Assembly: GCF_904830925.1 (NCBI RefSeq)
Contig: NZ_LR882967.1
Coordinates: forward strand, 3,426,106-3,490,105
Length of the DNA: 64,000 nucleotides
DNA from: Planktothrix pseudagardhii
GTDB lineage: Bacteria; Cyanobacteriota; Cyanobacteriia; Cyanobacteriales; Microcoleaceae
Direction of reading: 5' to 3'
Shown here: positions 27,829-43,678 of the stretch, piece by piece
Numbering within the stretch: the stretch's first letter is position 1
How the letters are laid out: each line of letters opens with the position of its first letter
Translations under genes and position numbers: made by a program
The notes under the pieces: model-generated
Database searches by the model: none
Told to the model about the DNA's origin: nothing
The model's input: only the letters and a program-made list of their open reading frames with translations

Positions 27829-28029
27829 ACAGGGGAAGTCAGGGGATGGGGGACAAGGGGATAGGGGGATTAGGGGGACAAGGGGACAAGGGGATTAGGG
27901 GGACAAGGGGACAAGGGGATAGGGGGATTAGGGGACAAGGGGATAGGGGGATTAGGGGACAAGGTGACAAGGTGACAAGGGGACAAGGGGACAAGGGGAC
28001 AAGGGGACAAGGGGATTAGGGGGAAGTCA
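27829..28029 (+). repeat. Tandem array of about 22 G-rich octamers (GGGGACAA, GGGGATAG, GGGGATTA) bounded by GGGGAAGTCA.
   Basis: Directly visible. The array fills most of the divergent intergenic region between 26589..27794(-) and pgl(+). Confidence 0.85.
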
Positions 28030-28121
28030 ACTGTTAACTTTCAACATTGAGCTTAACTGCTGGGTGCTAAACCTCAACCGCGAACGGACAAAACCTCTTA
28101 TCATTATTGTAGCCTGTTGCT

Positions 28122-28874
28122 TTGATGCCTAAATTAACCTTTGAGGCTACCCTAATGGAAAAATTTATAGAAATTCTAGCGAATAAAGAAGAAATCACTC
28201 AGCGAGCTTTAGATATTCTTCTGGTTAAAATTAAAGACGCGCTTCAAAGTCGGGATCAATTTACAATCGCTTTAGCAGGAGGGAGCACCCCTAAACCGTT
28301 ATATGAAGCGTTAGCTCAACAAGCGTTACCTTGGGATAAAATTCATGTCTTTTGGGGAGATGAACGTTATGTTCAGTCTGATCATCCCGACAGTAACCAA
28401 CGCATGGCGCGACAAGCTTGGCTAGATCAAGTTAATTTCCCCCCCACTCATCTTCATCCGATGCCAACGGCAGCTAACGACCCCAAGGTTGATGCCGAAA
28501 CCTACAATCGGGAATTAGAGCAGTTTTTTCATCTCAATGCCGGAGAATTCCCCGTTTTTGATGTGGTTTTATTGGGGATGGGGGATGATGCTCACACGGC
28601 ATCGTTATTTCCCCATACCGAAGCCTTAACCGTTCAAGATCGCTTGATTACCGTTGGCAATAAAGACGGTCAACCTCGGATTACCTTTACCGTACCCCTG
28701 ATTAATCACGCTCGCTGTGTGATGTTTTTGGTTACGGGGGCAAATAAACAGGAACCTTTGGCCCAGGTGTTTGCCTCAGAAGCCGATGCGATCGCTTATC
28801 CCAGCCGACTGATTCAACCGGTTGGGGAATTATGGTGGTTATTAGATGCCGCAGCAGGAGCCAATTTAACTTAA
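28122..28874 (+). CDS. pgl: 6-phosphogluconolactonase. An alternative start is MEKFIEIL at 28155.
   Basis: LAGGSTPKPLYEAL and WGDERYV motifs of the Pgl/NagB superfamily. About 240 aa. Confidence 0.75.
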   Translation: MMPKLTFEATLMEKFIEILANKEEITQRALDILLVKIKDALQSRDQFTIALAGGSTPKPLYEALAQQALPWDKIHVFWGDERYVQSDHPDSNQRMARQAWLDQVNFPPTHLHPMPTAANDPKVDAETYNRELEQFFHLNAGEFPVFDVVLLGMGDDAHTASLFPHTEALTVQDRLITVGNKDGQPRITFTVPLINHARCVMFLVTGANKQEPLAQVFASEADAIAYPSRLIQPVGELWWLLDAAAGANLT

Positions 28875-28934
28875 AATTTGCCAAAATTAAGCATCTGAAC
28901 CCTTAATCTCACTCAAATTTTTCCATCAAAATCC

Positions 28935-29672
28935 ATGATTGTTTGTCCCAATTGTAATTATCAAAATCCAGAAGGCGCGACGCAATGTGAAGCTTGTTAT
29001 ACGCCTTTGCCTTCGATGACGAGTTGTCCCCATTGTGGGGCGACGGTACAAACGGATGCGGCTTTTTGTGGTCAATGTGGGTCGAATTTACAGCCTACAT
29101 CTACCCCAACGAATTCAGGTGAAAACGAAGGCTTAATTCCGACTTTGGTTACCCCTCCTGATGAACCCATCGCTGAACCTCAGCCTCAACCGGTGATCAG
29201 TTCCGGGCCGAATTTAGAAAAATCTCCGGCTGTTCCTGATGCGACGCTCACGACTCCTCCGGCTGTAGTTCCTGTCGTGACGGTTGCGGAACCCCCAGCT
29301 AATATAGCTCAAGCTTTCCAGGCGGCTGCGACTCAGTTACAGCGACAGGCGGCGAAGCTGATTCATGTTCAAACCAATGCCACTGTAGAATTACCTCAAA
29401 ATGTCTCGGTGATTCATTTAGGAAAACCTAATGATTTAGTGCCCCCGGATGTTGATGTTTCGGGATTTCCCAACTCAGAAATTGTTTCTCGCACCCATGC
29501 TGATATTCGGATGGAGGGCGATGCGTACTATATTGAAGATGTGGGCAGTTCAAATGGCACTTATATTAATAATATCTCTCTTCCCAAAGGAAATCGACAT
29601 CGGTTAAGACCCGGCGATCGCATTTCTTTAGGAAAAGGAGATTTAGTTTCGTTTATTTTTCAACTGTCCTAG
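28935..29672 (+). CDS. Double zinc-ribbon plus FHA-domain protein.
   Basis: CPNC...CEAC and CPHC...CGQC pairs at the N-terminus, and a C-terminal FHA core (SRTHADI...GSSNGTYINN...PGDRISLG). Confidence 0.75.
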   Translation: MIVCPNCNYQNPEGATQCEACYTPLPSMTSCPHCGATVQTDAAFCGQCGSNLQPTSTPTNSGENEGLIPTLVTPPDEPIAEPQPQPVISSGPNLEKSPAVPDATLTTPPAVVPVVTVAEPPANIAQAFQAAATQLQRQAAKLIHVQTNATVELPQNVSVIHLGKPNDLVPPDVDVSGFPNSEIVSRTHADIRMEGDAYYIEDVGSSNGTYINNISLPKGNRHRLRPGDRISLGKGDLVSFIFQLS

Positions 29673-29919
29673 AGGATTCAGAACTCAGAGTACAGGGGCA
29701 GAGGGTAGAGGGTCGTTCAGTACAAAACAGCAAATTTACCCGTTATCAATGAATGCCCAACTGCACGAGAGCTTTTGAAAGCCAGGATTTTTGGATGGTG
29801 GGGGGAGTGAGTTCTCCTGAATGTTTGATTCGGGGGAAACCTTAATCCTTAATCGCCCTATATCCCCATCCAAAATCTGAGATTTCCCATTTAAAATAAG
29901 TTTAGGGCGTAGCTGTTGA

Positions 29920-30444
29920 TTGTTAGATTTTGCCAATGTGATTAAACTAACATTATTACATCCTCTCCAATCGATTCCTGTCCGCAGTTGGGTCTTTAAA
30001 AAGGACAATGTGATTCGGATTGGGCGATCGCTCAAGAATGATGTTGTTCTCTATAGTGCGGTTGTGTCTCGGTATCATGTCGAGATTCGTCGCCAAAGTG
30101 AAGATTGGGTTGTTGTGAATCTGGGAACCAATGGAACCTATGTTAATGGACAAGCGGTTCAACAAGTTCCCTTAGTCGATGGACAAGTAATTCACTTAGC
30201 GATATCGGGGCCCAAAATTCTCTTAAATATTCAACCTGATCCGACAGAATTGATTTTTACTGGAGGAATAGAGGTGCATCATTCATCTCAGCAACAGGAA
30301 CATCAGTCGGAACCTGTGTATTCCGTGGAAGTTTTAACTTCACCTGGAGTTTCCTCTGATCCATTGTTTCCCAGTCACACGGAAGAGACAACGGAGGTTG
30401 ATCTGCGTAAAAAATTGATGCTTCCTACCAATTACCCGGTCTAA
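29920..30444 (+). CDS. FHA-domain protein.
   Basis: IRIGRS...VSRYHVEIRR...NLGTNGTYVNGQAV...GQVIHL FHA signature. Confidence 0.7.
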   Translation: MLDFANVIKLTLLHPLQSIPVRSWVFKKDNVIRIGRSLKNDVVLYSAVVSRYHVEIRRQSEDWVVVNLGTNGTYVNGQAVQQVPLVDGQVIHLAISGPKILLNIQPDPTELIFTGGIEVHHSSQQQEHQSEPVYSVEVLTSPGVSSDPLFPSHTEETTEVDLRKKLMLPTNYPV

Positions 30445-31033
30445 CAGGATACCACAATAAGCGAGTCAGTGCGATTCCTGTCATCCCGGCAACGATTGTC
30501 CAAACCAGGACTAAACCCAACACATCTCCCAGAAAAAAACTTGTCCCCTGACGTAGAATTCCCCCAAACATCCAACCGATGGGTAATGCTATCCCCCACG
30601 ACAGTACACTAGCTACGATCCATCGCCAGGGTTTCAAGACTTCGGTGCGTAAGACCCACCATTGTCCAAGGCTTAAACATAGTCCTAATTTAACTCCCTC
30701 GATAACACCATAAATAATTCGAGGGGTAAGATTTAAGGTTCGGGGAACCACCCAACCCAAGAGTCCTATTGGAGTGAACGCAATGATTGTCCAGATTAAA
30801 ACATGGACGAAAATCCATCGCCAACTCTGGGAAATATGGTCTTTGAGAACAAACCATTGAGACACACTGATAATTAATCCGCCAATGGCTCCTTCTAAAG
30901 CTCCTAAATCGGGTCTTTCTCCAATTTCTATCCAAATTAAACTGACTAAAAATCCCACCTGTGTTACAACTATCCACTGGATGATAAACCCTAGGTCGGT
31001 TTCTAAATCCCAATTTTTATAGACCCATTTCAT
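30425..31033 (-). CDS. Hypothetical Trp-rich integral membrane protein.
   Basis: 202 aa with about 6 TM. No recognisable motif. Confidence 0.4.
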   Translation of the reverse strand: MKWVYKNWDLETDLGFIIQWIVVTQVGFLVSLIWIEIGERPDLGALEGAIGGLIISVSQWFVLKDHISQSWRWIFVHVLIWTIIAFTPIGLLGWVVPRTLNLTPRIIYGVIEGVKLGLCLSLGQWWVLRTEVLKPWRWIVASVLSWGIALPIGWMFGGILRQGTSFFLGDVLGLVLVWTIVAGMTGIALTRLLWYPVRPGNW

Positions 31034-31048
31034 AAGGATTTTATAGCA

Positions 31049-31070
31049 GGGAACAGGGAACAGGGAACAG
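31049..31070 (+). repeat. (GGGAACA)x3 microsatellite.
   Basis: gggaacagggaacagggaacag, directly upstream of the 30425..31033 gene start. Confidence 0.6.
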
Positions 31071-31119
31071 TAAGAAGTGAAAGGGTTTCAGCTTTCTATA
31101 TATCTGATAATTTTAGCTT

Positions 31120-32211
31120 TTAGGGTTGAAAGCGATCGCTTCTAAAATGATTTAATAAAGGATCATATTGTTGGTCTAAAACCCAATTAGAAATTAATTC
31201 AGCCGTAACCGGAGCCAATAAAATTCCATTGCGATAATGACCGACGGCTAAGGTTAAATTTTCCCAAGAACTCGGCCCTAATATGGGTAATAAATCTGGC
31301 GTTTCCGGTCGAAATCCCCACCAAAATTCTTGAATGGGAAACTCTTTTAAAATCGGATATAATCGCATCGCTCCTGAGAGTAAGGTTTCAATGCCATTGG
31401 GGGTTAAACCGCAGGTAAATCCCACATCTTCTGATGTCGCTCCAATCACAATTAAACCATCTCGACGGGGAACAATATAAATATTAGAACCGAATAACAC
31501 TTGTTTCAAAGGTAAGGGTTCAAAATCATCAGGAACTCGGACGGATAACATTTGTCCCTTGCGGGGATATACAGGAATTGATAATAAGTCTCCAGCCCAA
31601 GCTCCCGTTGTTAAAATATAATGATCGGCGTTAAAATTACCTTGATTGGTGATAATTTCTGTTACCTTTTCTGGGGAAGTTACTAAGGTTTTGACTGTGA
31701 TTTCTTCTATAATTTTAACGCCTAATTCCTGAGCCGCCCTGTACAAGGTTTTGACTAACCCCCGACGGTTATCCACTTGACCATCCTGGGGAAACCACCA
31801 CCCCCCCACAACGTCATCCCCTAACCCCGGCTGCTGCTGTAAAATCGCTTCTCGTTCTAGCCAGTAACTCGGTGTATCTGGGGTTTGGGGTAAGGTCGTA
31901 GAGTCGGGACGTTCATAAACGGGGGCTAAAATCCCACAGGGCCAATATCCAGTTTCTAATCCTGTGAGTTTCTCCAGTTTGCGTGTCCAGTCGTTATAGA
32001 GGGCGCGACTACGTAAACATAAGTCTAGCATGGGGCCAGGAGGAATTTGTTCGGCTTGGGGAGCTAACATTCCAGCCCCGACTAAACCTGCTGCTTCCTG
32101 TTGATTTCGACTTAGAACGGTTACCGTTGCCCCTCGTAATTTTAACTCAACGGCTAGGGATAATCCGATTAAACCGCCTCCGATTAAAATAATTTCATTT
32201 TCTGGTTTCAT
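31120..32211 (-). CDS. FAD-dependent oxidoreductase of DAO family (glycine oxidase ThiO-like).
   Basis: N-terminal GxGxxG (ILIGGGLIGLSLAVEL...TVLSR). About 360 aa, as for standalone ThiO. Confidence 0.5.
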   Translation of the reverse strand: MKPENEIILIGGGLIGLSLAVELKLRGATVTVLSRNQQEAAGLVGAGMLAPQAEQIPPGPMLDLCLRSRALYNDWTRKLEKLTGLETGYWPCGILAPVYERPDSTTLPQTPDTPSYWLEREAILQQQPGLGDDVVGGWWFPQDGQVDNRRGLVKTLYRAAQELGVKIIEEITVKTLVTSPEKVTEIITNQGNFNADHYILTTGAWAGDLLSIPVYPRKGQMLSVRVPDDFEPLPLKQVLFGSNIYIVPRRDGLIVIGATSEDVGFTCGLTPNGIETLLSGAMRLYPILKEFPIQEFWWGFRPETPDLLPILGPSSWENLTLAVGHYRNGILLAPVTAELISNWVLDQQYDPLLNHFRSDRFQP

Positions 32212-32260
32212 AACGGGTAAATATTTTTCTAATAATTCTATTGTTTTCTATTTTAAGGGT

Positions 32261-34063
32261 TTAGGGTTTCTTTTTGGGTTTAACGGTTACAGAAATTTCC
32301 CCATTTAATTGAATAAATTGTTGACGTTTGGGATCATAAACCCAGGCTTTAATCTTGTTCTCGCCTACAGGAAGAGATTCCCCTGAAAAAACAATTTGCC
32401 ATCCGGCTCTTGTATAGGATTTTGATTTTAATAATTCAGCAATATCAGGTCTAGCCACTGTAATATAAGCATTCGCAAAAAAGGATTTTTGATTATTATA
32501 GGACAGAAAAATAAGATTAGGTTGTTGTTGGGAATCTGGGAGAATTGCCCACCCGCTTAAACTCATCGGCATTTTGCGCCGAATGACTAAAGGCTCATTA
32601 TTGGGTAAAGGATGAAGATACCCATATTTTAAATTAGGGTCAGATACAAAAGGAACTGTTTCAGCAAAAGTTCTTAATTGTAAGTTTTTTAGTTTTTTTA
32701 CCTCCTGTCTTAAAAAGGAAGCATCAGGATAAATTCTGACTAAACAACTGTCTACTGAAGTGTTCAGAAAAGGAGAATCTTCCAGATAATCAATGAGTGT
32801 TAAACAGGTTTGACCACTCTTTAAGAAAAAACTTAAATCCGTTGCTTGAATAACAGCATATTCCCCTCTCAATATTGTTAAAATCCCTACAATACCGACT
32901 AACACACCATAGGTTAGGACAGTATTAATTACCTGATTCTTTAATAAGTCTAAAGCAGAAAGTTTGAAGCGAACCCAAATCAAACTCAGTTGAAAGATAG
33001 CGACGAATAATAATAAAGTATGAGTGGTAAAGCGAGAACCTTGTAAAATAGCATAATCGGAGCCTAAATAATAGCGTCCCTTGGCAATCAGAACACTTGA
33101 AAGCAAGCCAAATAACCCAATGGATATCCAAGGAAAGGTTAAAGAATAGAGATGAGGATTTTTAATTAACAGTTCATAGAGGAGATAAAAGAAATAGCAA
33201 AGGATGATCAAACCCAAAATCCAAGACCATTGCAGGGAACCTATTAAGGGAGAAGCAATAATATTAAATAGAAAATGAATTAAAAATAAAGTAGGATTTT
33301 GAGCTAAATCAGGATTATTTTTAAACGCATCATTTTTTAACGCTTCATCGGGTTGATAACCTAGGAAATAAAGATATACAGAAATTAAAAATAATAAAAT
33401 CCAAACGAAGAGACGCTTTCGCTTTTGAGTCAAATTTCCTTCTAACCCTAAAACGCAGGGAATTAAAGCCAGCCAAGATGCTAAACCTTGAGCCGAAGAA
33501 AAACTAGCGATTCCACATAAAATAGCCGAGCCAATATATTGCCATTTAGTCGATAAAAACTTAGGATAAGACAATAATAAACAAGCAAAAATAGTACAAA
33601 AATTAATTAAAAATATAGCAACTTGAAATCCCCAAAGCCAATTTTGATATTGAATCCAAGAAAAAAACACTAAACTGGTTAGCAGGTTTGTCAGATGAAA
33701 CAAGTTATCTTGTTGAGCAGGGTTCGTGAGTTTGGAGAGTTGATAAAGACATAAAAAGGTTAGAATTGCTAGTAAAAAGCTGCAAATTAGCTCTGCATAA
33801 ATATTCCAATCTGACGTTAAACCTAAGCTCAAAAAAATTAATTTAGGGAAAACTAATCGATGATAATTATGTAAATTAAATAAATCAATAAATTGTAAAG
33901 TTCCGGTTTTAAATTTCTCAAATAAATTAGGTAATATCCATTGATCATGATAAGGGACATCGACTCCATAATAAAGAATAAACGAAGCCGTTGCCAAGGG
34001 AGGGATTAGATATAAAATAATTAAAGGAATGTGAGTAGAAATAGATGGCGCACGCAGGTTCAT
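32261..34063 (-). CDS. Large polytopic membrane protein, putative GT-C-fold glycosyltransferase.
   Basis: About 13 TM plus a 150-aa C-terminal soluble domain. An acidic YYGVDVPYHD motif follows TM1, as in GT-C first-loop DxD/DE motifs. Divergently paired (49-bp gap) with the UbiA/SDR/GMC operon. Confidence 0.4.
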   Translation of the reverse strand: MNLRAPSISTHIPLIILYLIPPLATASFILYYGVDVPYHDQWILPNLFEKFKTGTLQFIDLFNLHNYHRLVFPKLIFLSLGLTSDWNIYAELICSFLLAILTFLCLYQLSKLTNPAQQDNLFHLTNLLTSLVFFSWIQYQNWLWGFQVAIFLINFCTIFACLLLSYPKFLSTKWQYIGSAILCGIASFSSAQGLASWLALIPCVLGLEGNLTQKRKRLFVWILLFLISVYLYFLGYQPDEALKNDAFKNNPDLAQNPTLFLIHFLFNIIASPLIGSLQWSWILGLIILCYFFYLLYELLIKNPHLYSLTFPWISIGLFGLLSSVLIAKGRYYLGSDYAILQGSRFTTHTLLLFVAIFQLSLIWVRFKLSALDLLKNQVINTVLTYGVLVGIVGILTILRGEYAVIQATDLSFFLKSGQTCLTLIDYLEDSPFLNTSVDSCLVRIYPDASFLRQEVKKLKNLQLRTFAETVPFVSDPNLKYGYLHPLPNNEPLVIRRKMPMSLSGWAILPDSQQQPNLIFLSYNNQKSFFANAYITVARPDIAELLKSKSYTRAGWQIVFSGESLPVGENKIKAWVYDPKRQQFIQLNGEISVTVKPKKKP

Positions 34064-34112
34064 TCGAGATTATCATAAAAACATTGCCAGATCTTAAATG
34101 AAGTAAGCCGGA

Positions 34113-34490
34113 TTGTCAACTATGATTCAACAACTGTTTGTGAATACTGTCTCTGCGTTGTGTTATTCTTTAATTGATCAGCGTTTTCCAGCCGATTGTA
34201 CTCCCCTAAAATTTCCCCATAATTCTGTTGTTAAGTTTGTTTTAGAACAACAGAATCGAATGCCTGATTATCTACAATTTCCCTTATTTTTATTAACGTT
34301 AATTTTTGATTTTTGGGGTTTGCTTCGTCGAGGTTCCTTCTTTCATTGTCAGTCCCCATCTATTCGTAAACTTCAAGTTGAAACTTGGAAAAATTCACCC
34401 TACCAAATTTGTCGAGATGTGATGCGATTTTATGAAAGTCTAGTGGTATTATATTGGCAATCTGAGTCAATTCATTCATCAAGTAACTGA
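34113..34490 (+). CDS. Hypothetical protein, first ORF of the plus-strand operon.
   Basis: 125 aa, ending 11 nt before the GMC oxidoreductase start. No motif recognised. Confidence 0.3.
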   Translation: MSTMIQQLFVNTVSALCYSLIDQRFPADCTPLKFPHNSVVKFVLEQQNRMPDYLQFPLFLLTLIFDFWGLLRRGSFFHCQSPSIRKLQVETWKNSPYQICRDVMRFYESLVVLYWQSESIHSSSN

Positions 34491-34501
34491 TTATTAATAT
34501 T

Positions 34502-35959
34502 ATGCTTCAAGCTTCAGAATGTGATTTAAAAGTTGAAATTGCTATCATTGGTTCTGGCCCTGGGGGAGCAATTACCGCCTGTTTATTAGCTGAAGCCGGA
34601 CGGGATGTTTTATTAATAGAAGAAGGCGACGATTTACCCTTAGAATCCTGTCAACCCTTTTCCGTTGAAGAAATGGTACAAAAATACCGAAATGGGGGGT
34701 TAACCGCAGCCTTTGGTCAACCCAAAATTCAATATGTTGAAGGTCGATGTGTCGGAGGAGGAAGTGAAATTAATAGCGGACTTTATCATCGAACACCCTT
34801 GAATATTTTAGAACAATGGCGCACAGAATTTGAAGTAGATGCTTTAACAGAAGCTGATTTAATCCCTCATTTTGAAGCCTGTGAACAAGCGGTTAACGTC
34901 TGTTATTTACCGGGGAAAGCTCCAACCGCATCTTTAAAATTACACGAAGGTGCGATGCGTTTAGGTTGGCAATCTTTAGAAGTTCCTCGATGGTTTCGTT
35001 ATGAAGAATCTGATGAAACTTCCGTTCCCAAAGGAACTCGACAATCTATGACGAAAACCTTTATTCCTAGAGCTTTAAAAGCTGGCTGTAAACTCTTAGC
35101 AAACACTCGGATTAAAACCCTTAAAGAAACAGATAAAACTTGGATTTTAACAGGAACTCGTCAAGGGAATAATATCCCAGAAAATCCGATTAAAATTCAA
35201 GCCGAAACCGTATTTGTTTGTTGTGGTGCAATTCAAACTCCAGCGTTATTAAGACGAAGCGGAATTAAAAATAATATTGGAAACTCCTTAAAAATGCACC
35301 CAACCGTTAAAATAATTGCTCAATTTGATCAAGAAATTAACGCCTTAGATATGGGGGTTCCTGTTCATCAAGTCAAAGAATTTTTTCCTCGATTTAGTTT
35401 CGGATGTTCGATTAGTTCTCCCCCTTATTTATCGGTGGGAATGACTGACCATCCTCAATATACAGAAACCGTTAAAAAACATTGGCAAAACATGGCAATT
35501 TATTATGCTATGATTACTGGGGAAAGTTTTGGGACAGTCAGAAATATTCCCTTTTATAATGATCCTTTAGTTCGCTATAAACTAACTTCTCAAGATTTAA
35601 AAGATTTATCAGAAGCCTTACAAAAATTAGCGTTATTATTGTTTGAAGCGGATGCTAAAATTCTCTATCCTAGTATTTCTAATACTTCTCCCTTGACCCA
35701 TCCCCAAGATTTAACTACAATAGCAGAACAATTGCCGATAAAACAAACAAATCTAATGACCGTTCATGTTTTTTCCTCCTGTCCAATGGGAGAAAATTTA
35801 CAAAAATGTGCCGTTAATTCCTTTGGAAAAGTTCATGGATTCAATAATTTATATATTGCTGATGCTAGTTTACTGTGTACCGCACCAGGGGTCAATCCTC
35901 AAGGTTCAATTATGGCGATCGCTCGTCGAAATGCGCTAAAATTCTTAAATAAAATTTAG
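34502..35959 (+). CDS. GMC-family FAD oxidoreductase.
   Basis: N-terminal IAIIGSGPGGAITACLLAEAG FAD fold. C-terminal GMC signature HVFSSCPMGE...GFNNLYIADASLL. Confidence 0.8.
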   Translation: MLQASECDLKVEIAIIGSGPGGAITACLLAEAGRDVLLIEEGDDLPLESCQPFSVEEMVQKYRNGGLTAAFGQPKIQYVEGRCVGGGSEINSGLYHRTPLNILEQWRTEFEVDALTEADLIPHFEACEQAVNVCYLPGKAPTASLKLHEGAMRLGWQSLEVPRWFRYEESDETSVPKGTRQSMTKTFIPRALKAGCKLLANTRIKTLKETDKTWILTGTRQGNNIPENPIKIQAETVFVCCGAIQTPALLRRSGIKNNIGNSLKMHPTVKIIAQFDQEINALDMGVPVHQVKEFFPRFSFGCSISSPPYLSVGMTDHPQYTETVKKHWQNMAIYYAMITGESFGTVRNIPFYNDPLVRYKLTSQDLKDLSEALQKLALLLFEADAKILYPSISNTSPLTHPQDLTTIAEQLPIKQTNLMTVHVFSSCPMGENLQKCAVNSFGKVHGFNNLYIADASLLCTAPGVNPQGSIMAIARRNALKFLNKI

Positions 35960-36033
35960 AAAAAATTACTTTTTTTAGCTCTTATATCCCTAATTAATGC
36001 TAAACTATAACCATAATAAAGAATAATAAAGTT

Positions 36034-37098
36034 ATGGAATTAAAAACTAACCTTATTTTAGTAACAGGTGCATTAGGATGGTTAGGGATTCGTTTAGTCG
36101 AATCTTTGGTTAAAGGATTACCCGATTTTGAACCCTTAAATCAACCTCAAAATAACTTGAAAATTCGGTGTTTAATTTTACCCAATCAAGATATAACCCT
36201 ATTGCAAAAGATCTCAGATCAAATTGAAGTTTATCAAGGGGACTTAAGAAACCCCCAAGATTGCGATCGCTTTTGTGAAAATGCCGAAAATGCTATTTTA
36301 TTTCATACGGCTGGAATTATTCACCCGCAAAAAGTATCAGACTTTTATCAAATTAATGTAGAAGGAACTAAAAATCTATTAAATTCTGCCATTTGTAGAG
36401 GTGTAAAACGAGCGATTATTGTCTCTTCCAATTCTCCCTGTGGTTGTAATCCCCATCCTGATCATTTATTCGATGAAATCTCTCCCTATCATCCCTATAT
36501 GAACTATGGACGTTCAAAAATGCTGATGGAATTAGAAGTTAAAAACTATCAGCAACAGGGAGAAATTGAAACCGTTGTTATCCGTCCTCCTTGGTTTTAT
36601 GGCCTCCATCAACCTCAACGCCAAACCCTCTTTTTTAAAATGATTCGAGATGGAAAAGGGCCGATTGTTGGAGATGGGAATAATCTCCGGTCAATGGCTT
36701 ATGTCGATAATCTTTGTCAAGGATTATTATTAGCCGCAATTACTGAAAAAGCCAATGGAGAAATTTATTGGATAGCCGATGAACGTCCCTACTCTATGAA
36801 TGAAATTATTGATACCATTGAACGATTATTAGAAACAGAATTTAACCAATCTTGTAGCCATAAACGCTTAAAATTACCGGGATTAGCCAGTGAAGTTGCT
36901 TTCGTGGTAGATGGAACATTACAAGCTCTAGGATTCTATCATCAAAAAATTCATGTTCTCTCAGAAATGAATAAAACCATTGCTTGTTCTGTGGCTAAAG
37001 CTCAACGAGAATTAGGGTATCACCCTACAATTTCCTTAGAAGAAGGAATGCGAAGAAGCTTAACCTGGATTTTTGAAAATTATGGAGGATTAGATTAA
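36034..37098 (+). CDS. Extended-SDR NAD-dependent epimerase/dehydratase.
   Basis: LVTGALGWLGIRLVESL Rossmann motif and a YxxxK-region (YGRSK). 354 aa. Confidence 0.75.
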   Translation: MELKTNLILVTGALGWLGIRLVESLVKGLPDFEPLNQPQNNLKIRCLILPNQDITLLQKISDQIEVYQGDLRNPQDCDRFCENAENAILFHTAGIIHPQKVSDFYQINVEGTKNLLNSAICRGVKRAIIVSSNSPCGCNPHPDHLFDEISPYHPYMNYGRSKMLMELEVKNYQQQGEIETVVIRPPWFYGLHQPQRQTLFFKMIRDGKGPIVGDGNNLRSMAYVDNLCQGLLLAAITEKANGEIYWIADERPYSMNEIIDTIERLLETEFNQSCSHKRLKLPGLASEVAFVVDGTLQALGFYHQKIHVLSEMNKTIACSVAKAQRELGYHPTISLEEGMRRSLTWIFENYGGLD

Positions 37099-37100
37099 TC

Positions 37101-37667
37101 ATGGTTAGCCATATTGTCGTAACAGAAGGATTAGTTTATCGGGAAGATTTCGCCCAATACTACTTTTTATCCAATTATTTTGAAGCAGTTTTACAACAAG
37201 TTTTAAAGCAGGTTTCTGTTGAGGAAAAAGTCTTTATTTCTCCGGGTAATTCCTTTGATTGTCCTGAATCAGAAGAACAGTGTGCTGCAAAATATCTTTT
37301 ACATTATCGTCCTGAACTCCAAGTTATTGTTCCTGAGAATGTTAAAGATCGTCCCTATTTGGATACTTTTGATAATGCTAGATTATTAAGAAAATGGTTA
37401 GAACAGCAAGAAAAATGGCCATTAGATGATGTTATTTTATATTGTAATAAACCCCATGCTTTACGAAGTCAGTTAATGTTTAAACTCTGTGGCTATAACG
37501 TCCAAGAAGTTATTACTTCTTATCCTGAACTCGCCTATCGAAGAATGCCATTTCGTCTTTTATTTTATCATTATTTGCCCGCTAATTTAGTTTACGAGTG
37601 GGGGGCTTTAGTGTATGATTTAATTAGATTTTATGTATGGAAGGTTTCTTCTAAATTGTCAACCTAA
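37101..37667 (+). CDS. DUF218 (YdcF/ElyC/SanA-like) protein.
   Basis: ISPGNSF...SEEQCAAKYLL...TFDNARLL...ILYCNKPHALRS matches the YdcF-like core pattern. Start is 3 nt after the SDR stop. Confidence 0.5.
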   Translation: MVSHIVVTEGLVYREDFAQYYFLSNYFEAVLQQVLKQVSVEEKVFISPGNSFDCPESEEQCAAKYLLHYRPELQVIVPENVKDRPYLDTFDNARLLRKWLEQQEKWPLDDVILYCNKPHALRSQLMFKLCGYNVQEVITSYPELAYRRMPFRLLFYHYLPANLVYEWGALVYDLIRFYVWKVSSKLST

Positions 37668-37788
37668 AAAAATAAACTTAGTATCGACTTACTATTTTAA
37701 TCAAGTTCCTAGAGTTTAACCTTTACGAATGGGTAACTTTCGTTTATGATACGAAAAAACAAATGGTGTTGAGGACAAACAGAACTTT

Positions 37789-38814
37789 ATGAAGCACTTA
37801 ATTACGGGGGGATCAGGGTTTTTAGGAAATTTAATTGCGCGTCGATTATATGAACGGGGAGAAGACGTTAAAATTTTAGATATTTGGGAAGATCCGACCC
37901 GTCCCCCAGAAATTGAATTTATTAACTGTGATATTTGCGATCGCACTGGGGTTGCAAAAGCGATGGAAGGAATTGATATTGTTCATCATAATGTGGCTTT
38001 AGTTCCCTTAACAAAATCCGGTAATAAATTCTGGGAGGTCAACGTTGAAGGAAGCAAAATCGCCGCCGAAGAAGCCGTAAAAGCCGGAGTCAAAAGTTTT
38101 ATTCACATGAGTTCTAGTGCTTTATTTGGAGAGGCTGAATGTCCGATTACCAACGATACCCCGACAAAAGCTGTTGAGATTTATGGACGGGCAAAATTAG
38201 CTGGAGAATTAGCGGTTAGAGAGATTTGTGATCAAGGTGGTTTACCCTTAATTGTGATTCGTCCCCGAACTATTTTAGGCGAAGGAAGATTAGGGATTTT
38301 TCAGATATTATTTGAATGGATTCAAGAAGGAAAGAATGTTTATGTGATTGGAAGTGGTAACGTTAAATTTCAGTTTGTTCATGCTCATGATTTGATGGAT
38401 GCCTATCTTCTTGCTCTTGATTTAGGTCAACCCGGAATCTATAATGTCGGAACCGATCGTTTTGGCACGTTACGAGAAGGATTAGAACATTTAATTGAAT
38501 ATGCAGGAACAAAATCTCAAGTTAAAAGTTTACCCACTGGACTAACAATTGGAACTTTACAACTATTAGACTGGATGGGGTTAAGTCCTCTCGCCCCTTG
38601 GCATTATTTAACCTATCACAAAGAATTTTATTTTGATGTTGATCCTCTGCTAAAACTCGGCTGGAAACCCAAATATTCTAATGATGAAATGTTCCGAGAA
38701 AGTTATGATTGGTTCCAAAAGAACTATAATCAACTGCAAGCGGAAAAAGCAGGTTCAGCCCATCGTCGCCCCGTCAAAGAAAAATTACTTTGGGTGTTAA
38801 AACAACTCTCCTAA
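37789..38814 (+). CDS. Extended-SDR NAD-dependent epimerase/dehydratase (second copy).
   Basis: ITGGSGFLGNLIARRL motif and a YGRAK catalytic region. 341 aa. Confidence 0.75.
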   Translation: MKHLITGGSGFLGNLIARRLYERGEDVKILDIWEDPTRPPEIEFINCDICDRTGVAKAMEGIDIVHHNVALVPLTKSGNKFWEVNVEGSKIAAEEAVKAGVKSFIHMSSSALFGEAECPITNDTPTKAVEIYGRAKLAGELAVREICDQGGLPLIVIRPRTILGEGRLGIFQILFEWIQEGKNVYVIGSGNVKFQFVHAHDLMDAYLLALDLGQPGIYNVGTDRFGTLREGLEHLIEYAGTKSQVKSLPTGLTIGTLQLLDWMGLSPLAPWHYLTYHKEFYFDVDPLLKLGWKPKYSNDEMFRESYDWFQKNYNQLQAEKAGSAHRRPVKEKLLWVLKQLS

Positions 38815-38859
38815 ACTAATTTTTAACAATGATTAACTTAGCTATTTGAATAACAAATC

Positions 38860-39222
38860 GTGAACAATATTAACTCAGCTAATTGGATTTCATGGAGTTT
38901 AGTTTTAATTGCGGCTATGAACACGGGAATTGGCAATTTATTACTAAAAAAATCCCGACTAGAAGCCCCCGATCCAAGTTTACTGACTCTATTATTATCT
39001 CCTTGGTTTATTGCAGCAATCCTCGTCTATGGAATTAACTTAATTGTCTTTGCTAAAGCCTTAGATCGCTTACCCGTTTCCATTGCTTATCCTGTCTTTG
39101 CTGCTATTGGTTTTAGCTTAGTTGCATTCATGGGAAGTTTATTTTTAGGAGAACGGTTTGGAATCAATCAAATGATAGGATTAAGCTTGATTGTGGCTGG
39201 AATTGTTATTATGTCTCGTTGA
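38860..39222 (+). CDS. Small 4-TM DMT/SMR-like protein (ArnE/ArnF-like putative polyprenyl-P-sugar flippase subunit).
   Basis: 120 aa with 4 TM and EamA/SMR-like spacing. Confidence 0.5.
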   Translation: MNNINSANWISWSLVLIAAMNTGIGNLLLKKSRLEAPDPSLLTLLLSPWFIAAILVYGINLIVFAKALDRLPVSIAYPVFAAIGFSLVAFMGSLFLGERFGINQMIGLSLIVAGIVIMSR

Positions 39223-39265
39223 AATAAAAAACCATTAAAGTAAGCTGTGAGGAGTTAAAGGATTC

Positions 39266-40345
39266 ATGAAACCAGCAAATCAAGATTATTATTCAGGTGA
39301 TTCTACTTCTGTATTAGAGACAATTTCTGATACCACTGATCCTTTATTTGTATCGACTCAATCTAAAACCCTTCCCCCCCTAATCAAACTTCTTCGTCCC
39401 CACCAATGGACAAAAAATTTATTCTGTTTAGCCGGACTTTTGTTTGGTGGTAGACTATTACAACCCCAGAGCATTTTGCTATCAGGATTAACGGTAATTT
39501 TCTTCTCAGCAATGGCATCAGCCATTTATATTTTTAATGATATTCAAGATCGAGAACGCGATCGCCTGCATCCGAAAAAAAAGTATCGTCCCCTTGCGAG
39601 TGGTCAAGTTTCAGTTAAACTGGGGTTAGCGATCGCATTTTGTTTAGCAACGCTTTCGTTTTTAGGTGCTTATTCGTTAGGAATTCCCACATTAATTTGT
39701 GTTTTACTTTACGCCATTAATAATATTGCTTATTCTCTCAGACTTAAAAATATAGCTTTATTTGATGTGAATTGCATTGCCTTTGGGTTTGTGTTAAGGC
39801 TATTAGCAGGAATCTATGCGTTAGGAGATATGCCAACGGCTTGGATTGTTTTATGTACCTTTTTTCTAACTCTATTTTTAGGGTTTTCTAAGCGACGTTC
39901 TGAACTTTTATCTCTCTTGCATTTTCAAAACCATCAAGACAGTTTAGAGTCTGAAAATATACCTCCAGAACATGAAAAATCAGCACCGTTAGAACGCTCT
40001 TATTTGCACTTATTTTATCAACGAGGAAGAAAAAACCAACAACGTCCAGTTCTCTCTCAATACACCTTACCTTATTTAGATTCTCTTCTCAATAGCACAG
40101 CAACAATGACCATTATGTGTTATGCTTTATTTACAATAACATCGGGTAAAAATCCTTCTTTAGTCATTACCGTCCCGATTGTTTATTATGCCGTAATGCA
40201 CTATAAATGGTTAGTTACAGTTTTAGCTGAAGGAGAAGAACCCAGCCGCATTTTAATTCAAGATACTACGATTAAATTAAGTTTAGGGGCTTGGCTGATT
40301 AGTTATTTAGCAATCTTGTATTTTAATATTCATTTATTTCATTAA
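39266..40345 (+). CDS. UbiA-superfamily prenyl-phosphate transferase with a decaprenyl-phosphate phosphoribosyltransferase (DPPR-synthase)-like signature.
   Basis: NDIQDRERDRLHPKKKYRPLASG. The first Asp-rich motif is followed by the HPxKxxRPxASG pattern that I recall for Rv3806c-type enzymes. 8-9 TM. Confidence 0.65.
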   Translation: MKPANQDYYSGDSTSVLETISDTTDPLFVSTQSKTLPPLIKLLRPHQWTKNLFCLAGLLFGGRLLQPQSILLSGLTVIFFSAMASAIYIFNDIQDRERDRLHPKKKYRPLASGQVSVKLGLAIAFCLATLSFLGAYSLGIPTLICVLLYAINNIAYSLRLKNIALFDVNCIAFGFVLRLLAGIYALGDMPTAWIVLCTFFLTLFLGFSKRRSELLSLLHFQNHQDSLESENIPPEHEKSAPLERSYLHLFYQRGRKNQQRPVLSQYTLPYLDSLLNSTATMTIMCYALFTITSGKNPSLVITVPIVYYAVMHYKWLVTVLAEGEEPSRILIQDTTIKLSLGAWLISYLAILYFNIHLFH

Positions 40346-40375
40346 AATATAGAACTGATAACTGATAACTGGTAC

Positions 40376-40395
40376 AGACGTGCCATGGCACGTCT
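40376..40395. terminator. Perfect 20-bp palindrome (agacgtgccatggcacgtct) flanked by CTGATAACTG direct repeats.
   Basis: Seen directly. Lies 30 bp after the UbiA stop. No U-tract. Confidence 0.35.
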
Positions 40396-40410
40396 CTACT
40401 GATAACTGAC

Positions 40411-40671: not shown

Positions 40672-42375
40672 TTAAACCGCAGGTAACTCATCTAAAATAG
40701 TAAACCGAACATGATTAATTGCTAAAGTACCCACAGAGACTTTTTCTCGGTCAACATCAACCCCTTGATTGGTTAATCGTTGAAAGCGGATTCCTTTGCC
40801 AATTTCAATATGATACCAAGCTAAACCCATAAAAAACCGCAACGGATAGGGCCCCCCTTCTTGAATATCATCCGGGTTAGATTCCATGGGAACCCAACCG
40901 AAACCCGGAATATAAAATTCCAACCAAACATGATTATATTCAGGTTCTAAAGAAACCCCTCGACGGTCAGCAAACTGCGGACATTTATACCGTCCAATGG
41001 TGCGGCAAGCAATGCCATTTAATCGGGCTAAAGCTAATAAAACTCCTACATATTCCCCACAGGAACCAATCCCTCGCTTCAAAACCACATCAGGATTTTC
41101 AATCTTAGAAGTCAGACTATAGGATAACTGATCATAAACATAATTGCGAATACTTAAAAGTTGCCGTAAAAAATTAGTTTCATTGCGAATCGCAGCTTGG
41201 GCGGCTTCTTGAACAATAGCCGTATTCATGGCTAAATGATCATCATCAACTAAATATTTTTGGGGAAAATCCGGTGACAAACGAGGAATATTTTCCACCT
41301 GACGAGGATTAATTTGATATTTAATACTTCTAACTTCTAACAACGCTTTCCAACCAAAAATTAAACGTTCTGTTGAAGTTAACGGATTAAATCTGAAAAC
41401 CGCGACTTTTTCCCCCTCTTCAATTTCTTCCCTAAAGGGAATCCCAATATAAGACACTTCCACAACTTTTTGCCGTTTCGTATTAGACGGTAAAGCAATT
41501 CGCCATTCTAAATCTTCAATGTAAACGGCATCTAACGGTTCTAACTCTTCTACATAAGACATTTCGATCAAATAGCCATTAGATGTAGCATAATGCTCGG
41601 ATTCGTTATAATGAAAATAGAGAGGATGGATAAACGTGCGATCGCGTTTTGCTAATTGAAATTGTTCATAGGAACTGGGATTATCTCGAATATAAAGCTC
41701 ATCCCCAGCATAGGCAACATAAAGAACTTCCTCACCCGTTTCAGGATCAGTATAAAAGGTTAATCCCGTGGGAGATTCAAACGGTGTTAACACACTAAAT
41801 CGCGTTTCTCCCGTTCCCCGTTCTAAACAATATACCGTTTGTTCTTCTCGATCACAAACCCATAATTCCTCATTTTTAATCGTGAGATTTTCTACTCCAA
41901 TTCCTGGGGAATGGAAGCGCGTAATTTCCTGTCGGGTATTGCGACTATAAACTAAGATAGAAGCCAGTCGATCACAAGCTAAATAAAGGGTAGATTCCCA
42001 AACCGCAATTCCGGTGACAGCATAAGGTAATTCCAGAAACAATAGAGGCTCAAGATTAACAATAGAATTCCCTGCAATCACTTGGGGACAATAATAAACT
42101 TCTCGACCGCGAGTAAACCAAAGGGTATTTTCCCAGACCGCTAACCCTGTAACATCTCTAAATGCTAACGTTAAATCAGGATTAACCACCGTTGCATTAT
42201 CGGTTTTGGGGTCAATTTTAAGTAAAAATCCGCGTAAGGTATCAACGGCAAATAAGGAATTTCCTACCCCAATTAACCCATATAAAGCAGAAACCCCCAT
42301 CGGTCGAATTGTCCGGGGTTTAAAACCCGTATTTTGCCCCAAAGTTGGTGAGTTAAGATTCATAGAAATTGTCAT
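40672..42375 (-). CDS. Transglutaminase-like cysteine protease domain protein with an N-terminal beta-propeller-like repeat region.
   Basis: C-terminal GSCGEYVGVL...NHVWLEFYIPGFGWVPME (Cys-His-Asp core). N-terminal repeated TG(L/I)AVWE(N/S)TL(W/Y) blades. Confidence 0.7.
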   Translation of the reverse strand: MTISMNLNSPTLGQNTGFKPRTIRPMGVSALYGLIGVGNSLFAVDTLRGFLLKIDPKTDNATVVNPDLTLAFRDVTGLAVWENTLWFTRGREVYYCPQVIAGNSIVNLEPLLFLELPYAVTGIAVWESTLYLACDRLASILVYSRNTRQEITRFHSPGIGVENLTIKNEELWVCDREEQTVYCLERGTGETRFSVLTPFESPTGLTFYTDPETGEEVLYVAYAGDELYIRDNPSSYEQFQLAKRDRTFIHPLYFHYNESEHYATSNGYLIEMSYVEELEPLDAVYIEDLEWRIALPSNTKRQKVVEVSYIGIPFREEIEEGEKVAVFRFNPLTSTERLIFGWKALLEVRSIKYQINPRQVENIPRLSPDFPQKYLVDDDHLAMNTAIVQEAAQAAIRNETNFLRQLLSIRNYVYDQLSYSLTSKIENPDVVLKRGIGSCGEYVGVLLALARLNGIACRTIGRYKCPQFADRRGVSLEPEYNHVWLEFYIPGFGWVPMESNPDDIQEGGPYPLRFFMGLAWYHIEIGKGIRFQRLTNQGVDVDREKVSVGTLAINHVRFTILDELPAV

Positions 42376-42572
42376 GGTGATAAAATAACGATCTTTAGTG
42401 CGTGTATGAGGTCAAACTTCAGATTAACCATCGGAAACAAAACCAACCGTTTCCTCAAATCCGATTTCGCCTCAAACATTTAAGATTAAGCACAGATTTT
42501 GACAACTTTCGCAGGAACATTGGATACAATAGTTCTGTCAAGAAATGCTACTCTGCTAATCGGTGAGCTTCA

Positions 42573-43466
42573 TTGATTATGGCTAGGCCAATGTTTTTCC
42601 TCCACCGTGCAACACTTGGACTAACGTTACTGTTGCAAATCATTTTGGGCAATAGTTTAATTGTACCCATCGCCCATTCAGCATCTTTACCTCCTCTTGG
42701 GGGAGATGAACAGCAGGGAATCACTCCTAGACAGGGGGACAAGGCTCAGAACTCTGAACCCTCCTCGCCCACGGGTCATTCACCCTTTACGAATTGGAAT
42801 GCCTTTACCCCACCTCAACGGGGTGTACCGGGGCGTCGGGAAGGGGGCGGAACTCGGGGTGGAGATTGTCCCAGTCCAGTGACTGCCTTAATCCCAGAGT
42901 CTACAATGGGGCGCACAGCGTCAAAACAACCTGCCTTTTTTCTTTATATTCCAGGGACACTCGATCAAAAGGTAACTGAATTTGAAATTACCGATGAAAT
43001 CGATAAAACCCTATATAAAACCACCTTTACCCTCAATATTGATCGCCCTGGAATTGTGGGAATTCAATGGTCTCCTAACTCTAAATTTATTACTTTAGAA
43101 GACGATAAAAATTATCGCTGGTATCTGACTATTAAATGTGATGTCAGTGATTCTTCAAAAGATATTCTTGTAAGTGGATGGATTAATTCAGCCACTTTAA
43201 CGAATGAGCAAAAACGTCAATTAGAACAAACTCAAGATCCCTTAGAAAAGCTTAAAATCTATGTTCAACAGGGGCTTTGGTATGAAACAATGGCAACTTT
43301 AGCCAGCTTACGATTAGAACAATCCAGAGATGTAGCGATTAAAAATCAATGGAATCAACTCTTACAATCTATTGGTTTTGATCCGGCTTTAAAAGAAACT
43401 CAAAATGAAAAAAATAAAGCTCAGACAATTCTTGATGCGCCTATTTTAAAAATTCAAATCAATTAA
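42573..43466 (+). CDS. DUF928-family secreted protein.
   Basis: Signal peptide, Gly/Arg-rich PPQRGVPGRREGGGTRGGDCP motif and a C-terminal conserved block. This family is typically paired with TpsB/CHAT genes in cyanobacteria. Confidence 0.55.
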   Translation: MIMARPMFFLHRATLGLTLLLQIILGNSLIVPIAHSASLPPLGGDEQQGITPRQGDKAQNSEPSSPTGHSPFTNWNAFTPPQRGVPGRREGGGTRGGDCPSPVTALIPESTMGRTASKQPAFFLYIPGTLDQKVTEFEITDEIDKTLYKTTFTLNIDRPGIVGIQWSPNSKFITLEDDKNYRWYLTIKCDVSDSSKDILVSGWINSATLTNEQKRQLEQTQDPLEKLKIYVQQGLWYETMATLASLRLEQSRDVAIKNQWNQLLQSIGFDPALKETQNEKNKAQTILDAPILKIQIN

Positions 43467-43678
43467 TTCAGTCCCTCTCTAAAAACCGAGTTTTTGACTC
43501 TAATTTTAGAGAGAAAAATCAAGATATTTTTTTCAGAAACCCGATTTTTTGGGGGTTGTCTGCATTAATCTCGACCGTATTCAATTCCGCTCCTATTCAC
43601 TGTTGCCTGTTTTCTAATCTAAACTAAACTTAACCTAGTTAGCCACCAACCCCATCGTTCACCAAAAGTAGGCATTTT

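Follow-up and report, generated by a model that had tools for sequence, protein, structure and literature searches.

The region between positions 32261 and 40410 of the Planktothrix pseudagardhii DNA studied here (a stretch of 64,000 nucleotides, hereafter the window) encodes what can be read, with a probability of roughly 0.65, as a lipid-carrier-dependent pentofuranose glycosylation system. Judged from the sequences, its central enzyme would be a UbiA-superfamily phosphoribosyltransferase, accompanied by a two-part GMC flavoprotein, two extended short-chain dehydrogenases/reductases (SDR1 and SDR2), a small transporter, a DUF218-like protein and a putative GT-C glycosyltransferase encoded on the opposite strand. 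Members of at least five bacterial phyla possess this uncharacterised enzyme set. All the open reading frames (ORFs) that an initial annotation had placed in this region were found again (8/8 in the ORF list of the window), as were the 49-bp divergent gap and the quoted motifs, YYGVDVPYHD in the 600-amino-acid (aa) membrane protein and NDIQDRERDRLHPKKKYRPLASG in the UbiA protein, and its family calls for the GMC enzyme, the two extended SDRs and the UbiA protein are borne out by Pfam and NCBIfam.

Among the proteins that suggest this function is the 359-aa UbiA-superfamily enzyme (39266-40345, plus strand), assigned to the polyprenyl-phosphate 5-phosphoribosyltransferase type (PPPRS; DPPRS for the decaprenyl-phosphate enzyme) by NCBIfam models NF008977 (229.7 bits, E 4.9e-68, cut-off 234) and NF008978 (183.2 bits, E 6e-54, cut-off 207) and by the PDB entry 8j8j. 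This entry is the mycobacterial enzyme Rv3806c (E 8.6e-30), whose structures are the sole PDB relatives found. The NCBIfam models for CtaB, ChlG, HPT and UbiA score at most 38 bits on the window protein, the best classical prenyltransferase model reaches at most 62.5 bits, and other prenyltransferase models give E values of 4e-17 or weaker, so that a function as chlorophyll, quinone, tocopherol or heme prenyltransferase was rejected from the profile scores. The residues with which Rv3806c contacts Mg2+ and the ribose, 5'-phosphate and pyrophosphate groups of phosphoribosyl pyrophosphate (PRPP) have been described (PMC10994848), and they were transferred to the window protein through the 8j8j alignment, in which K208 could not be aligned. 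The window protein keeps R22, K28, Y70, N73, D77, K87, R90, Y138 and K143 unchanged (as R44, K50, Y88, N91, D95, K105, R108, Y156 and K161, respectively), and two positions are substituted, Q135 by N153 and Y157 by F175; the latter Y/F variant also occurs in mycobacteria. Among 68 GMC-linked UbiA homologues there is no variation at the counterparts of R22, K28, Y70, N73, D77, R90 and Y138 and very little at those of K87 and K143; with the motif residues D74 and D81 included, nine positions are invariant. Unlike the Citrobacter enzyme described below, the protein has no HAD phosphoribose-phosphatase domain at its N-terminus, and it carries, relative to Rv3806c, a hydrophilic insertion of about 45 residues, LLSLLHFQNHQDSLESENIPPEHEKSAPLERSYLHLFYQRGRKNQ, in a cytoplasmic loop (residues ~215-259). 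By family and by residues, it is a phosphoribosyltransferase of the decaprenyl-phosphate phosphoribose (DPPR) synthase type (the Rv3806c/PPPRS branch) and would be expected to have this activity. Judged by the DPPRS models and the mapped Rv3806c residues, it does not belong with the chlorophyll, quinone, tocopherol or heme enzymes, and the grouping with DPPR synthases made in the initial annotation holds.

The second line of evidence is the recurrence of the whole gene set. When one genome per species was searched with an alignment of the GMC protein, 507 relatives were found, of which the closest 80 were taken for neighbourhood analysis together with 80 metagenome contigs. The gene set recurs around the orthologous GMC gene in both collections, in an arrangement far beyond chance, and the 80 closest relatives, including those of Arthrospira/Limnospira and of the NGR234 symbiosis plasmid, are nearly all linked to a phosphoribosyltransferase. 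For 43 species loci (the full-flank loci), the sequence extends 8 kb or more from the GMC gene in either direction; within 10 kb of this gene, a UbiA gene was present in 39 of them (two of the four misses are displaced by an inserted gene), the 125-aa ORF s125 in all 43, SDR1 in 34 (34/38 of the non-Bacillaceae loci) and SDR2 in 35. The core set of UbiA, s125-GMC, SDR1 and SDR2 is co-conserved in Cyanobacteria, Verrucomicrobia, Planctomycetes, Acidobacteria and rhizobial symbiosis plasmids. GT-C-like or other large polytopic genes lie inside or beside the operon in many genomes.

Three arrangements can be told apart. The cyanobacterial one (type A) contains s125, GMC, SDR1, often DUF218, SDR2, SMR and UbiA, and its GT-C-like genes belong to two unclassified families, located divergently upstream, downstream or within the operon. 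In Planktothrix agardhii (L005, 13181-13874), two ORF fragments between DUF218 and SDR2 resemble a 544-aa putative GT-C family (GTC2), which carries an FFLADDFNW motif after the first transmembrane helix (TM1), and which in other cyanobacteria occurs intact within the operon, just upstream of SMR (L020, L023, L028) or joined to a GTCw-like part (L014, L016, L019). The fragments have the look of a decayed gene; the window has 121 bp only at the position between DUF218 and SDR2. The second arrangement (type B), found in Verrucomicrobia, Planctomycetes, Acidobacteria and others, consists of a membrane protein of about 526 aa (V526) on the opposite strand, a UbiA fused to a HAD domain, a fused s125-GMC, SDR1 and SDR2. 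The order HAD-UbiA, s125-GMC, SDR1, SDR2 predominates in the metagenome contigs as well, and both fusions are present in Verrucomicrobia and most metagenome contigs (e.g. L003 10001-11860, L043, L052 and L092), whereas in cyanobacteria and Bacillaceae both are split or absent. The same arrangement, with V526, was also seen in contigs named uncultured Bifidobacterium or Bifidobacteriaceae (L050, L053, L054, L056, L069 and L070); the taxonomic labels of these metagenome-assembled genomes look doubtful. The third arrangement (type C) is known from five Bacillaceae genomes (L004, L048, L058, L067 and L078) and comprises s125, GMC, UbiA, homologues of DprE1 and DprE2, an LPG_synthase_TM protein, a DUF212/PAP2 protein and a PMT_2 GT-C. 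By its gene content, this Firmicutes operon represents a complete pathway of the decaprenyl-phosphoarabinose (DPA) kind, which includes the GMC in addition but neither of the two extended SDRs.

A pathway with a PPPRS, a small transporter with four transmembrane helices (4-TM), a GT-C enzyme and an auxiliary SDR or DprE1/E2 epimerase has been shown experimentally in Citrobacter youngae O1/O2, where these functions are assigned to ORF15 (PPPRS-PRP), ORF14 (small transporter), ORF12 (GT136) and ORF13 (epimerase) (Kelly et al. 2024, PMC11127046). In this three-component system, the PPPRS makes undecaprenyl-P-ribofuranose from PRPP, the EmrE/ArnE-like protein is the proposed flippase, and GT136 adds the sugar to the glycan; the auxiliary SDR (ORF13), or DprE1/DprE2, converts ribose into xylose or arabinose on the lipid (PMC11127046). 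UbiA, SMR and GT-C are encoded within 8.1 kb in the window, and the presence of all three core parts places the cluster among the three-component pentofuranose systems. It has in common with C. youngae an Rv3806c-type PPPRS with an NDxxDxxxD motif, a small 4-TM transporter of the EmrE/ArnE kind, a GT-C with a C-terminal Ig-like or carbohydrate-binding-module-type domain, and one or more cytoplasmic SDR-type accessory enzymes proposed to act on the lipid-linked sugar. Unlike its C. youngae counterpart, the window UbiA has no fused HAD domain, which is present in the orthologous clusters of Verrucomicrobia and rhizobia. In addition, the Planktothrix cluster goes beyond that of C. youngae in having the two-part GMC flavoprotein, a second SDR and the DUF218-like protein; the accessory enzymes described there are a single SDR (ORF13) or DprE1/E2, and the term GMC has 0 occurrences in that paper.

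The transporter of the window (120 aa, 38860-39222, plus strand) is a 4-TM protein of the SMR family (Pfam Multi_Drug_Res, 46.5 bits), found in 18 of the 32 loci with an unfused UbiA, and is a candidate flippase for the lipid-linked sugar on the basis of its family. It had been called ArnE-like, a description that stands as far as the transporter type is concerned but not as orthology, its scores against ArnE (34.3 bits, cut-off 92) and ArnF (26.6 bits, cut-off 99) being both below equivalog level.

The putative transferase is the 600-aa protein encoded on the minus strand (32261-34063). No match was found in Pfam or NCBIfam at E<=0.01, nor in the PDB with single-sequence and profile searches. 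Its predicted structure (predicted local distance difference test, pLDDT, 91) has a polytopic membrane domain with the fold type of solved GT-C enzymes, followed by an Ig-like beta-sandwich at the C terminus (~residues 475-600). TM1 corresponds to helix 8-32, and all 41 sequences compared share D40 (VPYHDQW), which opens the next helix and with it the first periplasmic element. H68, R69, R330 and R344 are also invariant in the family, and Y345 is conserved in at least 90%. The GT-C call made from the sequence alone agrees with the modelled fold and with a conserved acidic residue after TM1; of the acidic motif then proposed, YYGVDVPYHD, the part containing D40 stands, but its first D is not the conserved residue. 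The 600-aa protein is thus a candidate GT-C glycosyltransferase and a putative periplasmic transferase of a lipid-linked sugar. It shares its architecture, a GT-C part followed by a C-terminal Ig-like domain, with GT136 ORF12 and with Emb/AftD. Besides this architecture, the only resemblance to GT136 ORF12, whose key residues are D31/E34/H106/R349/Y350, lies in R344 followed by Y345. There are 154 homologues, and those with a named source are nearly all from filamentous cyanobacteria. The closest homologue from P. agardhii (44% identical) lies on a metagenome contig (L001, 10001-11773) between genes for a C39-peptidase ABC transporter and an HlyD-like protein on one side and rmlC, rmlD, rmlA-like, GT2 and GT4 genes on the other, a rhamnose-gene neighbourhood which hints that this GT-C family serves rhamnose-containing glycans.

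A further part of the cluster is the pair formed by s125 (125 aa, 34113-34490) and the GMC-family FAD oxidoreductase (485 aa, 34502-35959), both on the plus strand. The former had been taken for an unrelated unknown, a view that no longer holds: s125 resembles the N-terminus of fused GMC proteins, sharing 46% identity with residues 9-113 of a fused GMC from Pedosphaera (619 aa). In Verrucomicrobia the GMC proteins have 610-650 aa with s125 as their N-terminal ~113 residues, and the two are fused in 12 of the 43 full-flank loci and in 59 of the 80 metagenome loci. In a model of the fused protein (overall pLDDT 79), the s125 part folds into a bundle of five helices that precedes the flavoprotein body. 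Neither s125 nor its alignment gave a consistent Pfam family, a significant PDB match or an NCBIfam match. On these grounds, s125 is predicted to be helical and to serve the GMC protein as a partner subunit or as a domain; it falls in no described family. The GMC protein itself is 100% identical to a protein of Planktothrix tepida named "GMC-type oxidoreductase y4nJ" and has both domains of the family (GMC_oxred_N, PF00732, 109.6 bits; GMC_oxred_C, PF05199, 66.4 bits). The GSGPGG motif for FAD, H422 (HxxSSCPMG) and N465 (NPQG) are invariant in the GMC alignment, and from the position of their motifs we take H422 and N465 to be the catalytic His/Asn pair. Its nearest structures are the large subunit of the membrane-bound fructose dehydrogenase, pyranose oxidases, cholesterol oxidase and C-glycoside 3-oxidase, followed by primary-alcohol oxidases; some of these structural relatives work with small partner subunits. 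Lacking a signal peptide and with an FAD motif that begins at residue 17, the protein should act on the cytoplasmic side, and its predicted location is the cytoplasm or the cytoplasmic membrane face.

Both SDRs resemble enzymes with lipid substrates, as judged by their 3Beta_HSD, OleD, HpnA and NSDHL matches. SDR1 (354 aa, 36034-37098, plus strand; Epimerase 100.8 bits and 3Beta_HSD 89.1 bits in Pfam) carries the TGxxGxxG and YxxxK motifs, and its best NCBIfam match, far under the cut-off, is an OleD-type 2-alkyl-3-oxoalkanoate reductase; it probably performs a keto-reductase step on the lipid-linked sugar. SDR2 (341 aa, 37789-38814, plus strand; Epimerase 139.4 bits, 3Beta_HSD 89.7 bits) is GalE/3beta-HSD-like, with HpnA as its best NCBIfam match (100 bits, under the cut-off) and NSDHL as its best PDB match, followed by UDP-glucose 4-epimerases. 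It has an SSS...YGRAK pattern and an acidic residue after beta-2, and its probable role is an NAD-dependent dehydrogenase or epimerase step.

Between the two SDR genes lies that of a divergent DUF218 (YdcF/ElyC/SanA-like) protein (188 aa, 37101-37667, plus strand). The DUF218 call is marginal for the window sequence itself (26.6 bits against a Pfam cut-off of 27.6) but is backed by its orthologues, many of which carry precomputed PF02698 and are named YdcF or ElyC/SanA/YdcF family. The subfamily comprises 48 homologue clusters, all cyanobacterial where named, with the motifs YLDTFDNA and YCNxPHxxRS. The gene is present in 15 of the 32 loci with unfused UbiA and in none of the 11 with HAD-fused UbiA (Fisher p=0.008, without phylogenetic correction and with all cases cyanobacterial). 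In Escherichia coli, the metabolism of undecaprenyl phosphate and lipid II has been connected with the DUF218 proteins ElyC and SanA (PMC3879167, PMC12176290). As a speculative lead, the protein might be a 5'-phosphatase or a carrier-lipid accessory factor. In the relatives, the 5'-phosphatase would be the HAD domain fused to UbiA (type B and rhizobia) or the DUF212/PAP2 protein (type C); the cyanobacterial operons have neither.

Put together, these proteins suggest a mechanism in five steps. The UbiA enzyme would move ribose-5-phosphate from PRPP onto polyprenyl phosphate at the cytoplasmic membrane face, and the 5'-phosphate would then be removed, with the DUF218-like protein as a speculative candidate. 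The lipid-bound ribofuranosyl residue would next be remodelled by the three redox enzymes, which comparative genomics finds almost always inherited with UbiA. Here, the SDR2/SDR1 dehydrogenase/reductase pair would be the functional counterpart of DprE1/DprE2, epimerising a ring carbon via a keto intermediate, and s125+GMC would, as the best guess, oxidise the C5' primary alcohol set free in the previous step, so that a pentofuranuronic acid results, oxidation of a ring hydroxyl being the alternative. The C5' position is preferred because certain genomes have the GMC but no partner reductase, and others have it next to a full DprE1/E2 pair; the simplest reading is that the GMC oxidation is common to all versions of the pathway and its product usable on its own. 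The SMR protein would flip the donor to the periplasmic face, where the GT-C, using Asp40 of its first periplasmic loop, would transfer the sugar to an envelope or extracellular glycan, with the Ig-like C-terminal domain possibly binding the acceptor.

Whether this chemistry leads to a new sugar is a more tentative matter. It is conceivable, though we hold it doubtful, that s125-GMC, SDR1 and SDR2 turn polyprenyl-phosphate ribofuranose into a lipid-linked sugar undescribed as a bacterial glycosyl donor. Candidates would be a pentofuranuronic acid, its decarboxylated tetrofuranose, or D-lyxofuranose. In types A and B a C5' uronic acid might permit an oxidative decarboxylation like that of NSDHL or UDP-xylose synthase (UXS), and the tetrofuranose would follow by analogy with the oxidase, decarboxylating 3beta-HSD and ketoreductase logic of sterol C4-demethylation and with UDP-xylose synthesis.

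Of the other explanations, the one that survives best, although it is unlikely, is that proposed in the initial annotation, with the GMC as a non-homologous replacement of DprE1 that oxidises C2' of polyprenyl-P-ribose, one extended SDR as DprE2, and polyprenyl-P-arabinofuranose as the product. A FAD oxidase paired with an NAD(P)H reductase does follow the DprE1/DprE2 logic, and the closest structural relatives of the GMC include sugar ring-hydroxyl oxidases. Moreover, neither DprE1 (FAD_binding_4/ALO) nor DprE2 (classical SDR) was found in the cluster or in the 64-kb window, whose sole FAD_binding_4-like ORF (3453-4991) scores 32.7 bits to a DprE1 homologue. What speaks against this explanation is the situation in the five Bacillaceae genomes, where an s125+GMC pair 58-62% identical to that of the window stands in one operon with UbiA and with homologues of DprE1 (445.7 bits) and DprE2 (154.6 bits, both with the equivalog models). 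SDR1 and SDR2 are found in 0/5 of these operons vs 34/38 of the loci elsewhere. Since the GMC is kept beside DprE1/E2 while SDR1 and SDR2 are absent, it is the SDR pair, and not the GMC, that is swapped with the DprE1/E2 pair. In addition, two SDRs rather than one are co-inherited with the GMC, and in three full-flank loci (L047, L066 and L076), which contain GMC and UbiA, there is no reductase gene within 10 kb. The GMC thus probably catalyses a separate, conserved oxidation, additional to the step of DprE1/E2 type; its substitution for DprE1 is not favoured, and an arabinofuranose ("DPA-like") product counts among the claims left unsupported.

Quite improbable is a double epimerisation, in which GMC and SDR1 would invert one ring centre and SDR2, acting like GalE or ORF13, the other, giving lipid-linked D-lyxofuranose or a similar sugar. 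The GalE-like features of SDR2 (the SSS...YGRAK pattern and the UDP-glucose 4-epimerase matches) and the co-inheritance of GMC, SDR1 and SDR2 agree with it, and in C. youngae O2 a single SDR (ORF13) is enough to convert Ribf into Xylf (PMC11127046). However, it leaves unexplained both the Bacillaceae operons, with GMC and DprE1/E2 and no extended SDR, and the GMC-only loci, and lyxofuranose is absent from known glycan structures (PMC11127046). A very improbable explanation is that only UbiA, SMR and GT-C form the glycosylation system, adding a plain ribofuranose side chain while the GMC and the SDRs act elsewhere (for example on a nucleotide sugar for the acceptor glycan or on the lipid carrier), or that the product of the module is a phosphoribosyl lipid with no function as glycosyl donor: extended SDRs do typically take nucleoside-diphosphate sugars and the GT-C is variable and sometimes absent, but GMC+s125 directly adjoins the UbiA gene in several phyla with SDR1/SDR2 next in most loci, no nucleotidyltransferase was found in the operon with Pfam and NCBIfam, and the SDR pair is exchanged for DprE1/E2, which act on the lipid-linked sugar.

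Several observations weigh against the proposed lipid-carrier-dependent pentofuranose system itself. The UbiA protein stays narrowly under both NCBIfam equivalog cut-offs, probably because the ~45-residue insertion splits the profile matches. A recognisable GT-C candidate was found within 10 kb in 24 of the 43 full-flank loci with the queries used; in several other loci there are additional polytopic proteins of large size in which an acidic motif follows TM1. In P. agardhii and related strains, the operon is retained but has no GT-C gene beside it, and the co-conservation expected in the initial annotation holds strongly for the biosynthetic genes but loosely for the GT-C. A single GT-C family common to all phyla was considered and rejected, since the Planktothrix GT-C, V526, y4nK (from a rhizobial cluster described below) and the Bacillaceae PMT_2 are unrelated in hhalign comparisons (probabilities <1% for the 600-aa protein against the PMT_2, V526 and y4nK neighbours). 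Extended SDRs usually use nucleotide sugars. No recognised 5'-phosphatase (HAD, PAP2) was found in the cluster or in the 64-kb window. Ring-hydroxyl and primary-alcohol oxidases are alike among the nearest structures of the GMC, which makes the oxidised position a guess, and literature searches did not find a GMC enzyme linked to polyprenyl-phosphate pentoses. Finally, the Fisher test for the swap between SDR1/2 and DprE1/E2 (p 1.3e-4) is overstated, the Bacillaceae being one clade and effectively one evolutionary event; a metagenome scan seeded with the Bacillus GMC gave no more loci of the DprE1/E2 type, so that the swap stays confined to this single clade.

Among the closest systems is the uncharacterised cluster y4nG-y4nM of the symbiosis plasmid pNGR234a of Sinorhizobium fredii NGR234, where y4nG is the orthologue of SDR2 (306 bits), y4nH of SMR, y4nL of SDR1 (381 bits) and y4nM of the PPPRS, which carries a HAD domain, unlike the window UbiA. 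The GMC orthologue y4nJ is 39% identical, y4nI is a 125-aa ORF in the position of s125, and y4nK is a 658-aa membrane protein. No similarity was detected between y4nI and the s125 profile, or between y4nK and the Planktothrix GT-C with hhalign. The y4n genes (in L086, 295302-314738 of pNGR234a) lie ~6.6 kb from nodS, with an IS21 element between them, and GMC orthologues were also seen on Mesorhizobium and Rhizobium plasmids. Literature searches returned no reported function for y4nJ or the y4n genes.

The decaprenyl-phosphoarabinose pathway of mycobacteria, which consists of Rv3806c, Rv3807c, DprE1, DprE2, Rv3789 and the Emb/Aft GT-Cs, has in common with the cluster a homologous phosphoribosyltransferase, in which the mapped PRPP/Mg residues are kept or conservatively substituted, an extracytoplasmic GT-C and what would be the oxidation and reduction of ribose on the lipid. 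In contrast to mycobacteria, Planktothrix has no DprE1, DprE2 or PAP2, and has the GMC and two extended SDRs instead. Outside Actinobacteria, the Nod-factor arabinosylation system noeCHOP of Azorhizobium is PPPRS-dependent and has DprE1/DprE2 homologues. The pilin arabinosylation system of Pseudomonas aeruginosa, with TfpW as transferase, likewise uses a PPPRS-dependent lipid-linked pentofuranose donor and DprE1/DprE2 homologues (PMC11127046). No GMC is reported for either system, both of which were compared by description only. The Arn system (ArnT/ArnE/ArnF) differs in that a GT2 enzyme makes its donor, undecaprenyl-phosphate 4-amino-4-deoxy-L-arabinose (L-Ara4N), out of a nucleotide sugar, with no involvement of PRPP and a UbiA enzyme.

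Within the window, the GT-C gene is separated from the biosynthetic operon by the 49-bp intergenic region (34064-34112), and the short gaps of 11 bp between s125 and GMC and of 2 bp between SDR1 and DUF218 are compatible with an operon. A -10/-35-like match was found on the minus strand (34119-34091) in a weakly enriched promoter scan; on the whole, the promoter and terminator scan of the region was uninformative. The flanking genes are unrelated to glycan synthesis and encode FHA proteins, a ThiO-like DAO, a transglutaminase-like protein, and DUF928 and ShlB proteins. The last two (42573-45505), a DUF928 protein followed by a ShlB/POTRA_2 outer-membrane protein, have the look of a two-partner-type secretion module unrelated to the cluster. 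The G+C content is 0.345-0.372 in the cluster (32001-40000), vs 0.43-0.45 to the left (26001-32000) and 0.416-0.435 to the right (42001-50000). This lower value could reflect acquisition by transfer, a reading compatible with the ~60% GMC identity across phyla, or simply AT-rich membrane genes. The GC skew is strikingly high in two 2-kb segments, 26001-28000 (+0.21) and 48001-50000 (+0.25); the latter overlaps the gene for a 500-aa DUF5331 protein (47573-49075), preceded by a NifH/frxC-family gene (46670-47536) and with a 337-aa ORF on the opposite strand (47626-48639).

The general concept of a lipid-linked pentofuranose donor used by a GT-C enzyme is already published (PMC11127046), and the system is therefore less unprecedented than the initial annotation, which had called it so far uncharacterised, suggested; the accessory set of GMC and two SDRs is not described there. 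Literature searches on cyanobacterial pentofuranoses gave nothing relevant, and no description was found of s125-GMC and two lipid-type SDRs associated with a PRPP-dependent lipid ribosyltransferase across phyla, of its occurrence in cyanobacteria, or of the unclassified GT-C families. Pentoses are a hallmark of cyanobacterial extracellular polysaccharides, and we know of no lipid-linked pentofuranose pathway described in cyanobacteria. The cluster provides a concrete candidate for such a pathway, which the comparative data widen to several phyla, and its accessory chemistry, with a GMC flavoprotein, a new partner domain and two lipid-type SDRs, is without a characterised counterpart. Solving this chemistry would show how the chemistry of DprE1/DprE2 type was replaced outside Actinobacteria, and could enrich bacterial glycobiology with a novel enzyme activity and a novel sugar. 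The sugar made by this enzyme set may be one not yet described and, if so, it would be a modification common to cyanobacteria, Verrucomicrobia, Planctomycetes, Acidobacteria, some Bacillaceae and the symbiosis plasmids of rhizobia.

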